In this document: in pieces, positions 10,717 to 12,625 of the stretch | Position numbering within the stretch: position 1 is the first letter of the stretch | How the letters are laid out: each line of letters opens with the position of its first letter | Translations under genes and position numbers: made by a program | Source of the DNA: an uncultured Verrucomicrobiae bacterium | GTDB lineage: Bacteria; Verrucomicrobiota; Verrucomicrobiia; Chthoniobacterales; Xiphinematobacteraceae | Length of the DNA stretch: 64,000 nt | Assembly: GCA_963706715.1 (NCBI GenBank) | Contig: CAVPNI010000004.1 | Span: 352,001 to 416,000 of the forward strand | Direction: 5' to 3' | The notes under the pieces: generated by a model | What the model was told of the DNA's origin: nothing | Database searches by the model: none | Seen by the model: only the letters and a program-made list of their open reading frames with translations

Positions 10717-11589
10717 ATGGTCGTCAAAATACCCAGTTTGAAGAGTAACTATTCTGGATTTTCATCACTTGCAAGAATCGCAAATTCCACAAAAGAGCGC
10801 TTTTCTGACTTTACTGACGAAGTACATGTGGATTTTTCGGAAGCAAATTGGATCGATGCAAATATGACTGCCGCGCTCGGTGTTATATTAAGCCCTATTG
10901 AATACGACAATACCGTGTCGTTAATGAATCTTAAACCTGCTGTTGAAGACATTTTCCTAAGAAATAATTTTCTTGCCAGGCATGGTCATTCTAAAGCTGA
11001 TGTGCACGGCACTACGATTCCCTATCAAAGCTTTAATTCAGAAGATGCCGAGCCTTTTGCTTATTATTTGAAAACATATTTTTACCGAAAAGAAATTCCC
11101 AAAATGTCCAAATTACTTGAGGAGCGTTTCAAAAGAAACATTCTGGAAATATTCGAAAATGCAGCGACACACTCGGAAACAAAGTTCGGAATTTTTGTTT
11201 GTGGACAATTTTTTCCAAAACAACATCGTTTGACTTTCTGCGTCGCTGATGCAGGTATTGGATTTCGGCAGAAAATCTACAAGGAACTCGGACTGATATT
11301 GAATTCAGACACGGCTATCCGCTGGGCTTTGGAAGACCGGAATACAACTCGTAAAGGAAATGTTCCCAGTGGACTGGGGTTGAAATTATTACGCGAGTTT
11401 GCCAAACTAAATGGCGGACTTCTACAGATTGTGTCTGATCGAGGATACTGGGAATGTGGAGGGAATGGCGAAACCATCTCCCGCTTCGATGAGTCCTTCC
11501 CTGGAACTGTCGTGAATCTTGAAATAAATACGGCTGACACCTCTTCATACAGCTTGAGTATGGAAAACAAATCTGACAATTTATCATAA
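10717..11589 (+). CDS. STAS-like N-terminus plus GHKL (histidine-kinase-like) ATPase
   Basis: VDFSEANWIDA STAS-like segment; N-box EIFENAATHS, G1 DAGIG, G2 GLGL, terminal PGT; no dimerisation/His-acceptor or TM segment recognised. Confidence 0.85.
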   Translation: MVVKIPSLKSNYSGFSSLARIANSTKERFSDFTDEVHVDFSEANWIDANMTAALGVILSPIEYDNTVSLMNLKPAVEDIFLRNNFLARHGHSKADVHGTTIPYQSFNSEDAEPFAYYLKTYFYRKEIPKMSKLLEERFKRNILEIFENAATHSETKFGIFVCGQFFPKQHRLTFCVADAGIGFRQKIYKELGLILNSDTAIRWALEDRNTTRKGNVPSGLGLKLLREFAKLNGGLLQIVSDRGYWECGGNGETISRFDESFPGTVVNLEINTADTSSYSLSMENKSDNLS

Positions 11590-11592
11590 ACC

Positions 11593-11976
11593 ATGCCAGA
11601 AACGATTACTATGTCAGAAACAATTTTACTCCGAATTTACGATATTGTTGGTGGTCCTTTCTGGATATCCCAAAAGGATGGACAGAAAGTCTACGAAAAG
11701 ATTGTAGCCGCATTTAAAGAAAACCGTGTTGTAAAACTATCATTTTCTGGTCGCGAAAATTTAATTACTGCATTTCTCAATGTCGCAATCGGACAACTCT
11801 ACAGCGGAGACTTTACGGAAGATTTCCTAAAAACGCATCTTATTCCCACAGAGATTACAGATGATGACAGAGAAATGTTGAATGTGGTTATTGCAAACGC
11901 AAAACGATATTTTGCAGATCCACTAACTTATGATGAAATTTGGAATGATGAAATAAGTGATGAAGAACATGAGTAA
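11593..11976 (+). CDS. STAS-like protein (DUF4325-like)
   Basis: DGQKVYEKI...VKLSFSG..LITAFLNVAIGQLY pattern; starts 3 nt after the ATPase stop. Confidence 0.8.
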   Translation: MPETITMSETILLRIYDIVGGPFWISQKDGQKVYEKIVAAFKENRVVKLSFSGRENLITAFLNVAIGQLYSGDFTEDFLKTHLIPTEITDDDREMLNVVIANAKRYFADPLTYDEIWNDEISDEEHE

Positions 11977-12625
11977 AGCTCACAATGCACTTAACTATAG
12001 CTTTACCAAAGACGAAGAAATTTTAGTTGATACAAACGTTTGGATTTTTCTTTATCCACCGACAAAGCCACCAGCTTCACATGCTTCGCAGGATTACAAA
12101 TACAGCATAATTTTTAAAAAACTGAGGGAGGCAAACGCTCGTCCAATAATCAGCTCACTAATATTGAGTGAATATTTTAACCGTTATATCCAATGCGAGT
12201 ATCGAGGGTTATGGGAAAGACAGTATAAAAATCGGAAAAAATTTCGACAGTCAACCGCCTTTACTTCTGTGGGACAGGCTGCTACTAACAATATAAGGAA
12301 CATTCTGACGTTTACTGAATTGCGCGACACCCTAATTTCACAAATTGATCTTTCTTCTATTTTAAAGGCTATCGAAGATGGAGCATGCGAATTTAACGAT
12401 GCTGTATACGTTGAAATCTGCCGCAAACAGGGATGGAAAATGCTTACACATGATGCGGATATGGCATATGGTGGCATCGAGCTACTCACGACAAACGAAT
12501 CTCTTCTTGGTACCTTTAATCTGATTGAACAAAGGGCTAAGGCTGCAACAGGCAAGGGATGGGAACAATTGAAAGACTATATTCCTGATGCTCCGCCGCA
12601 AGCCGGTGATGAACTGCCGGAATGA
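11969..12625 (+). CDS. PIN-domain ribonuclease
   Basis: Acidic tetrad in LVDTNVW, LSEYFN, EFNDA, THDAD; start overlaps the STAS gene stop. Confidence 0.85.
   Translation: MSKAHNALNYSFTKDEEILVDTNVWIFLYPPTKPPASHASQDYKYSIIFKKLREANARPIISSLILSEYFNRYIQCEYRGLWERQYKNRKKFRQSTAFTSVGQAATNNIRNILTFTELRDTLISQIDLSSILKAIEDGACEFNDAVYVEICRKQGWKMLTHDADMAYGGIELLTTNESLLGTFNLIEQRAKAATGKGWEQLKDYIPDAPPQAGDELPE

Follow-up and report, generated by a model that had tools for sequence, protein, structure and literature searches.

What does a compact triad of genes for a kinase, a STAS protein and a PIN protein do in an island filled with mobile elements, and does it belong to a system that has already been described? 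The question was raised by a 64,000-nucleotide (nt) stretch of DNA from an uncultured Verrucomicrobiae bacterium (GenBank assembly GCA_963706715.1, contig CAVPNI010000004.1, positions 352,001 to 416,000 of the forward strand). This whole stretch is referred to below as the window, and the three genes lie at its positions 10717 to 12625. An original prediction, made from the raw sequence alone, had read the triad as a partner switch in which phosphorylation of a STAS protein gates a PIN ribonuclease, and had named no system of such a design as known from experiment. The triad belongs, by its sequence, gene architecture and predicted structure, to the VapKSC family, which was published in 2026. 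It is very probably an intact vapKSC operon, encoding a kinase-gated, three-component toxin–antitoxin and anti-phage module, and its genes are named accordingly:

10717–11589, + strand: vapK, an open reading frame (ORF) of 290 amino acids without internal stop
11593–11976, + strand: vapS, an ORF of 127 amino acids without internal stop
11960–12625, + strand: vapC, an ORF of 221 amino acids (218 from the ATG at 11969, 222 from the GTG at 11957) without internal stop
About 10600–12900, no strand: AT-rich block holding the operon and approximately 280 nt downstream of it, GC about 0.35–0.44, with flanks at 0.45–0.55

The three genes had been described as co-oriented, tightly coupled and AT-rich, and this was verified: all lie on the + strand with open frames, vapK and vapS are separated by 3 nt (TAA at 11587–11589, ATG at 11593), and the triad has a GC content of 0.398, the remainder of the window one of 0.477. 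The 8-nt overlap given for the second and third genes holds only when vapC is started at the ATG at 11969; the overlap is 17 nt from the ATG at 11960 and 20 nt from the GTG at 11957. The four closest complete relatives (L001, L002, L003 and L013) all have a 17-nt overlap and a VapC N terminus reading MKTKNKAH, which is matched by the MKNMSKAH of the window protein when read from 11960. For this reason the ATG at 11960 is, on sequence comparison, the more likely start, and the 8-nt overlap would then fall away. Residues of VapC are numbered from the ATG at 11969, as in the VapC alignment (A3).

VapKSC was described by Chambers, Rani, Min, Villa and Corbett (EMBO J 2026, PMC13373217; bioRxiv preprint, February 2026), and a full-text literature search returned the name, among the matches listed, only in the preprint and article of this work. 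The article presents VapK as a CapK-like kinase with STAS and GHKL domains that lacks the helix-turn-helix (HTH) of CapK, VapS as a STAS protein whose C-terminal region is short, and VapC as a PIN protein. In the model system, from Escherichia sp. E4736, VapS binds and inhibits VapC, and the VapS–VapC structure (9Z7O) is a 2:2 complex. VapC is toxic and its D28A variant is non-toxic; the S48E substitution in VapS abolishes VapC binding and antitoxin activity, with loss of co-purification, and VapS without its C-terminal region fails to neutralise VapC. Against phage Bas42 the operon protected by about 2 logs, and this protection was lost in VapC D28A, VapS S48A and VapK F54A. Single-stranded DNA (ssDNA) from DNA damage is proposed as the trigger of VapK, a proposal drawn from modelling with AlphaFold 3 and from the phenotype of F54A. 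The same source counts 289 vapKSC operons in IMG, 103 of which lie within 10 kb of a PADLOC hit (PMC13373217).

For characterization of the first gene product, an AlphaFold 2 (AF2) model was built from an alignment of 35 relatives, with a mean per-residue confidence (pLDDT) of 88.6 and a predicted TM-score (pTM) of 0.88. The model and the alignment of relatives define the following features:

Residues about 1–91 (nt 10717–10989), + strand: STAS domain of VapK, from the AF2 model and structural matches
Residues about 97–275 (nt 11005–11541), + strand: SpoIIAB-like GHKL Ser/Thr kinase domain of VapK, from the AF2 model and structural matches
Residue W45 (codon 10849–10851), + strand: invariant tryptophan of VapK, from the alignment
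Residues E144 and N148 (N148 codon 11158–11160), + strand: N-box of VapK, from the alignment
Residues D178xG180xG182, + strand: G1 box of VapK, from the alignment
Residues G219xG221, + strand: G2 box of VapK, from the alignment

SpoIIAB (1l0o_A) topped the structural search with this model (VIA, whole library), aligning 135 of 141 residues to model positions 97–275 at Z 11.9 and a root-mean-square deviation of 3.3, and led the next chain by 2.5 Z; anti-sigma kinases of the RsbW and UsfX types matched at Z 8.6–9.1. Residues 1–91 matched STAS domains (SLC26/SulP STAS, MlaB, RsbS and TM1442) at Z 8.5–9.1. The STAS-like N terminus, the complete GHKL boxes and the missing histidine acceptor that had been claimed for this gene could all be recognised: the model contains neither a DHp/His-acceptor domain nor an HTH, with nothing N-terminal of the STAS fold, and the window shares E144, N148, D178, G180, G219, G221 and W45 with every one of the 80 relatives. 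The acceptor-like position of the VapK STAS domain is occupied by A48, and Ala is found there in 77 of the 80. At the sequence level VapK matched phrog_3364 at 8.6e-43, and a protein search against 5.8 billion sequences yielded 1851 candidates, of which 873 are relatives at E ≤ 0.001, and the closest protein other than VapK itself is 60% identical; the few named relatives are mostly labelled 'ATP-binding protein'. A single-sequence search of the PDB with VapK gave no match, and a VapK profile gave weak matches only, to a STAS chain (0.019) and to histidine kinases (0.04–0.05). Foldseek with the model likewise returned generic GHKL proteins (Hsp90, histidine kinases and Topo VI-B) at low TM-scores. 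A DISARM reading of VapK was rejected, the match to DrmA of PADLOC-DB being partial (2.8e-6, residues 142–274 against a profile of 1750 positions) and attributable to the shared GHKL fold.

The second gene product was compared directly with the solved Escherichia antitoxin. Its features are as follows:

Residues about 10–86, + strand: STAS core of VapS, from the AF2 model
Residues 90–108 and 110–122, + strand: C-terminal helices of VapS, from the AF2 model
Residue Thr59 in LITAFLN (codon 11767–11769), + strand: predicted phosphoacceptor of VapS, from alignment with S48 of Escherichia VapS

Both claims made for this gene, a DUF4325-like STAS protein and a Thr in LITAFLN near the phosphorylated position, proved sound. 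Pfam DUF4325 ('STAS-like') matched at 1.1e-11 (44.8 bits, cut-off 23), and the PDB chain 9z7o_A, 'Escherichia VapS', was matched at 2e-7 by the single sequence and at 2.1e-22 by a profile of 43 homologues, over positions 4–117 of 120. Window T59 lies opposite residue S66 of this chain, which corresponds to native S48 since the chain length (134 against 116 residues) implies an 18-residue tag. The acceptor column holds Ser or Thr in all 79 relatives (Ser in 69, Thr in 10), and alignment thereby places the window protein in a minority Thr-acceptor clade. In the AF2 model of VapS (pLDDT 75.1), T59 stands at the start of helix 59–71, and the model matched STAS chains at Z 5.6–7.0 (SLC26 STAS 7.0; RsbV and SpoIIAA 6.1). 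No DNA-binding Pfam family matched VapS. PADLOC-DB 2.0.0 (2023), which predates the VapKSC paper, gave no match to VapS or VapC, and NCBIfam gave far-sub-threshold matches only for the triad proteins.

The domain content of VapK and VapS bears on a different reading, in which the triad is a CapK–CapS-type transcriptional switch and the STAS protein represses the downstream gene. CapK and CapS, a DNA-damage-activated kinase and a repressor combining STAS and winged HTH (wHTH) domains, are encoded upstream of CBASS, Bub and other immune operons (PMC13373217). Of all characterised proteins these two are nearest to VapK and VapS, and they share the same logic, whereby a STAS-bearing GHKL kinase phosphorylates a conserved Ser of its STAS partner and dissolves a protein interface, according to that article. 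CapK, however, has an N-terminal HTH, whereas the window VapK model begins with STAS; CapS is a DNA-bound repressor with a C-terminal wHTH, whereas window VapS has 127 amino acids with two helices after the STAS core and, as noted, no DNA-binding family match; and VapS matches the VapS of 9Z7O over its whole length. With neither DNA-binding domain present and a toxin as the output, this reading is very improbable, and identification as vapKSC is preferred.

The third gene product carries the catalytic residues expected of a VapC toxin at most positions. These were located by alignment, from which four loci (L012, L018, L037 and L080) were left out:

Codon starting at 12029, + strand: acidic residue D21 of VapC
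Codon starting at 12170, + strand: acidic residue E68 of VapC
Codon starting at 12389, + strand: acidic residue E141 of VapC
Codon starting at 12398, + strand: acidic residue D144 of VapC
Codon starting at 12452, + strand: acidic residue D162 of VapC
Codon starting at 12458, + strand: acidic residue D164 of VapC

A PIN nuclease with all of its acidic residues had been proposed; D21, E68, D144 and D162 are indeed present, and position 141 is Glu, not Asp. The single sequence matched PDB chain 9z7o_C, 'Escherichia VapC', at 3.2e-3, and a profile of 39 homologues matched it at 1.4e-13 over positions 4–178 of 179, with window D21 aligned to the catalytic D28 of the Escherichia toxin.

Binding of VapS to VapC was examined by complex prediction, using VapC residues 1–185 (leaving out the C-terminal tail), purpose-built alignments for both proteins and three controls. 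The pair scored 0.84 (runs 0.83–0.86) against 0.00 for the best control, a mark reached by 116 of 157 solved complexes and by 2 of 215 mismatched pairs. No fewer than 93% of contacts were shared between runs, and partner pLDDT was at least 87. In the predicted complex T59 of VapS contacts VapC residues 29, 30 and 108, and the interface also includes VapS residues 91–122 and VapC N23. The model thus supports binding of window VapS to VapC with Thr59 in the interface, which fits the published structure.

To follow the triad across species, GTDB species genomes were scanned, giving 80 VapK loci from many phyla, and these were searched by tblastn with the window proteins as queries. In 79 of the 80 the gene immediately downstream of VapK encodes VapS, the exception (L015) being at a contig edge, and a VapC gene comes next in 74. 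Of the six loci without a VapC match, five (L009, L015, L041, L045 and L069) end at contig edges, and in the sixth (L055) a divergent VapC N terminus could be recognised by eye before the contig end, bringing VapC to 75 of 80. The triad is therefore conserved in the order K–S–C in every locus where the contig allows. Typical sizes of VapK, VapS and VapC are 290, 120 and 180 amino acids, and the S–C overlap is 8–17 nt in most loci. Two of the loci lead back to the published catalogue: Aromatoleum toluclasticum ATCC 700605 (L013; VapK 54% identical to that of the window, E 1e-98) and Nitrosomonas nitrosa Nm90 (L036; VapK 48% identical). The genomes of both are named in Dataset EV3 of PMC13373217, a match at genome level, and on this ground the window operon is assigned to the same family as the operons catalogued by those authors.

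Conservation of the third gene also speaks to whether the triad might be a SpoIIAB/SpoIIAA- or RsbW/RsbV-type switch on a sigma factor encoded elsewhere. The kinase folds are alike (SpoIIAB, the best structural match, at Z 11.9; RsbW at Z 8.6–9.1), the substrate has a STAS fold, with RsbV and SpoIIAA among the VapS matches (Z 6.1), and SpoIIAA presumably has its acceptor Ser/Thr at a helix start, like T59 of VapS. In those systems, however, the kinase holds and then releases a sigma factor, whereas in the window the released protein would be a PIN protein held by the STAS protein. VapK further carries a STAS domain of its own, with Ala48 at the acceptor-like position, outside the 141-residue SpoIIAB alignment (model 97–275). 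The third gene is a PIN gene in the window and in 75 of the 80 loci, the other five being cut by contig ends; VapS–VapC binding is predicted with high confidence; and no sigma-factor family was matched among the neighbours of the operon. A sigma-factor switch is hardly credible on these grounds, and the PIN protein is taken as the output of the vapKSC operon.

Judged by its homologue in Escherichia sp. E4736 (PMC13373217), the operon would work as follows. In the resting cell VapS would bind VapC (the solved relative forms a 2:2 complex) through its STAS face, burying Thr59 and laying the C-terminal helix of VapS near the PIN active site, so that VapC would be blocked. DNA damage or phage infection would activate VapK, which in the proposal of the article occurs through ssDNA at the STAS–GHKL interface. 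Active VapK would phosphorylate Thr59 of VapS and break the VapS–VapC interface; VapC would then be freed to cleave RNA, and growth would stop.

This is essentially the partner switch that had been predicted, in which STAS phosphorylation gates a PIN ribonuclease, and by sequence and modelling the triad is a member of the family for which it was published. The premise that no characterised system has this architecture falls, since VapKSC has been characterised; the match to a named system thus takes away the novelty and leaves the mechanism unaffected. One element of the published mechanism, the ssDNA or DNA-damage trigger acting on VapK, had no counterpart in the original prediction.

Compared with the Escherichia sp. 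E4736 system, the window has the same three genes in the same order, a VapK with STAS and GHKL domains and no HTH, a VapS with a STAS domain and a C-terminal helical region in which T59 stands for S48, and a VapC PIN protein in which D21 stands for D28, with profiles reaching nearly the full length of both solved chains. It differs in being distant in sequence (single-sequence matches of 2e-7 for VapS and 3e-3 for VapC), in an acceptor that is Thr, still within the 'serine or threonine' of the article (PMC13373217), and in a VapC with Glu141 and an extra tail of about 37 amino acids. Toxicity, neutralisation and phage protection were assayed for the Escherichia operon, whereas the window copy is known from sequence and models. 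Type II VapBC toxin–antitoxin systems share with it a VapC-like PIN toxin neutralised by a bound protein antitoxin that is encoded just upstream. The antitoxin gene of the window, however, encodes a DUF4325/STAS protein and not a DNA-binding VapB (AbrB, ribbon–helix–helix or Phd/YefM), and VapS, as reported for the Escherichia protein, leaves the catalytic Mg2+ in place and is released through a dedicated kinase (PMC13373217). The group 'PIN.4' of an earlier catalogue (Matelska et al. 2017, PMC5499597) is counted with VapBC among the nearest known systems.

Several observations weigh against the assignment of the triad as a functional vapKSC operon. Pfam calls for two of the domains fall under their gathering cut-offs (HATPase_c on VapK at 8e-5, 23.5 bits against 26.4; PIN on VapC at 1.1e-3, 20.1 bits against 23.6), although both are borne out by the agreement of structure and profiles. 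The predicted complex may have passed through likeness rather than binding, as a like complex (9Z7O) has already been solved. An aromatic residue marks the proposed ssDNA site, F54 in Escherichia VapK and W68 in CapK (PMC13373217); candidates for the F54 equivalent in the window are W45, invariant in 80 of 80, and position 46, which is Ile in the window and Phe in 55 of 80 relatives. For the Escherichia system itself, the article gives no biochemical proof of VapK kinase activity or of its activation by ssDNA, owing to insolubility of the protein, and the RNA substrate of VapC is stated there as not known (PMC13373217). Within window VapC, Glu occupies position 141, at which 73 of 74 homologues carry Asp, and the C-terminal tail of about 37 amino acids, beginning near nt 12512, is absent from all 38 aligned homologues; either feature could alter or weaken activity. 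Elsewhere in the family, VapC of L065 is cut to 70 amino acids, a stop lies inside VapK of L030, and early stops occur near the VapC C terminus of L018 and L080, so that decay in the VapKSC family is rare but real. Expression of the operon is putative: vapK starts just 24 nt from a divergent ORF, and no sigma-70-like promoter was found on either strand of 10300–13000, where dinucleotide-preserving shuffles gave 6.1 ± 2.7. This null result was taken as uninformative, since the scan used the sigma-70 consensus and the host may use another type of promoter. No PADLOC 2023 defence gene, generic ABC-ATPase matches aside, lies within 10 kb.

Taken together, the promoter result, Glu141, the VapC tail, the broken genes around the operon and the degraded triads in L030, L065, L018 and L080 are what would be expected if the window triad were an inactive remnant with intact frames, either silent or with a crippled VapC. 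All three frames are nevertheless open and the invariant residues are kept (the GHKL set of VapK, T59-A-F-L-N of VapS, and D21, E68, D144 and D162 of VapC); an Asp-to-Glu change retains the carboxylate, and the promoter scan covered the sigma-70 consensus only. An inactive remnant is quite unlikely by this account, and the operon is regarded as an intact member of the family. The scarcity of sigma-70-like sites in 10300–13000 is itself odd for an AT-rich block. The divergent ORF (10124–10692, − strand; 149 amino acids) has viral HTH proteins as its nearest ESM Atlas clusters, and a 78-amino-acid ORF in another frame (10124–10360) overlaps it; the pair may be one frameshifted gene.

The surroundings of the operon were then considered. 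It lies in a mobile-element-filled island at about 8.3–26.2 kb, between ABC-transporter genes and phosphoenolpyruvate carboxylase, which includes insertion sequences (IS), integrases and a second PIN gene:

8456–9483: IS630
About 13332–14820: ISL3 copy 1, with a 443-amino-acid transposase
About 16453–17940: ISL3 copy 2, with a 443-amino-acid transposase, 100% identical to copy 1 and inverted relative to it
19734–20900: tyrosine integrase, phage-type (phrog_1, 3.1e-26)
24462–24917: second PIN gene, classical-looking (Pfam PIN 7.9e-9), next to the integrase at 24965–26182
24965–26182: tyrosine integrase at the island edge

Pieces of IS66, a DDE_5 transposase and an IS110 fragment are also present. 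ISL3 copy 1 cuts a virus-like ORF in two, with its N-terminal piece at 13168–13341 and a remainder running from after 14820 to 15618, and copy 2 interrupts an IS66-family transposase region; the 100% identity of the two copies suggests very recent transposition. Beside the first integrase, in the region 19213–20900, a 99-amino-acid ORF matches phrog_6088 at 1.7e-10 over positions 681–763 of 772, only the C-terminal end of phage primase/helicase families, and appears to be what is left of a replication module from a satellite or prophage. The island had been described as one of mostly broken phage genes. Checking bears this out in part, with one virus-like ORF split by ISL3, the primase fragment and two integrases, and the island probably represents what remains of a prophage. 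Within this IS-riddled, integrase-bearing island the operon is cargo acquired by horizontal transfer. An accessory, mobile character is supported by the low GC of the block, by the 60% identity of the nearest protein to VapK and by the single copy in the genome; a search of 40 related genomes, 4 from the same genus and 36 from the same order and mostly at least 90% complete, likewise gave no VapK relative. Among mobile elements at large, VapK matched 5 of 50,697 phage records, with the K–S–C triad in 2 of the 5, one of which adjoins the integrase of Streptococcus prophage Javan172 (L082, MK448860.1); a plasmid search with VapK gave one record (Deinococcus gobiensis).

Given such surroundings, the operon might be a true vapKSC by descent that serves mainly as an addiction module, stabilising a decaying prophage and IS island with no phage defence here. 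No other intact multi-gene unit was seen between IS630 (8456–9483) and ISL3 (13332–14820), any toxin–antitoxin pair resists loss of its antitoxin, and addiction alone could explain the intactness of the operon among broken neighbours. The PADLOC 2023 null within 10 kb fits the same picture, as does the second PIN toxin of the island, which has a weak Phd/YefM-like partner: a 100-amino-acid ORF upstream of it (24163–24917 region), overlapping by 4 nt and matching Phd/YefM at 0.0033, below threshold. Against this stand the phage protection reported for the tested Escherichia relative (PMC13373217) and the company that related operons keep. In a flank survey of 113 ORFs of at least 180 amino acids, within 6 kb on either side of 18 related loci, at least one non-ABC defence model (E ≤ 1e-10) was found near 12 of the 18 and none at the other 6; the models include Zorya, Septu, AbiE, type I and type III restriction–modification, and Cas1/Cas4. 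No enrichment is claimed from these figures, since the survey had no background control. In two loci the triad lies between HmaA (SNF2 helicase) and HmaB (methylase), at L007:2420–10496 and L013:1743–12783, sharing the interval with Septu PtuA/PtuB in the latter, and these two triads are embedded cargo inside a larger defence system. Addiction and defence are mutually compatible, and a role in addiction without defence is unlikely, though worth some weight, next to the kinase-gated anti-phage module.

A functionally shifted VapKSC was also considered, in which the kinase would answer transposition bursts or failed excision instead of phage, the module would police or stabilise the island during genome decay, and the VapC tail would add a layer of control. 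The Thr-acceptor clade, the tail, Glu141, the lack of PADLOC defence neighbours and the IS-saturated prophage remnant can be cited for it, as can a lineage with reduced 0.9-Mb genomes in the same genus; it is nonetheless a long shot beside the module as published.

With a named kinase–STAS–PIN triad that is partly solved (9Z7O) and phage-protective in the 2026 work, the window operon does not add a kind of system to those known; it is a copy of a known one, divergent, intact and horizontally acquired. What it adds is an intact example at most 60% identical to any of 5.8 billion proteins, with an unusual VapC, in a lineage where a search of 40 related genomes found no VapK relative. The published mechanism had, moreover, been reached independently from the raw sequence alone. 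Any soluble VapK, that of the window included, could help to show VapS phosphorylation, the ssDNA signal and the RNA target of VapC.

Some minor observations concern the host and the wider family. The genome that contains the window is 3.04 Mb in 4 contigs and IS-rich, whereas two genomes of the same genus (G003 and G004) each consist of one contig of about 0.9 Mb, with a completeness rating of 99%; genomes in the genus therefore seem to range from free-living size to strongly reduced, as would fit IS expansion during genome decay. ORFs flanking the operon have virus-dominated, unnamed nearest clusters in the ESM Atlas, which serve as leads only. In the Javan172 record (L082), a VapC-like frame at 3781–4239 (tblastn 5e-14) follows an 'ATPase-like protein' and a VapS-like hypothetical protein of 114 amino acids; the record annotates only a 39-amino-acid ORF at this site, and the VapC is either unannotated or broken. 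Lastly, L041 and L045, on two contigs of the same metagenome-assembled genome, carry VapK–VapS pairs of identical geometry with the same end inside or just after vapS, which points either to an element that is repeated or to a repeat at which the assembly broke.

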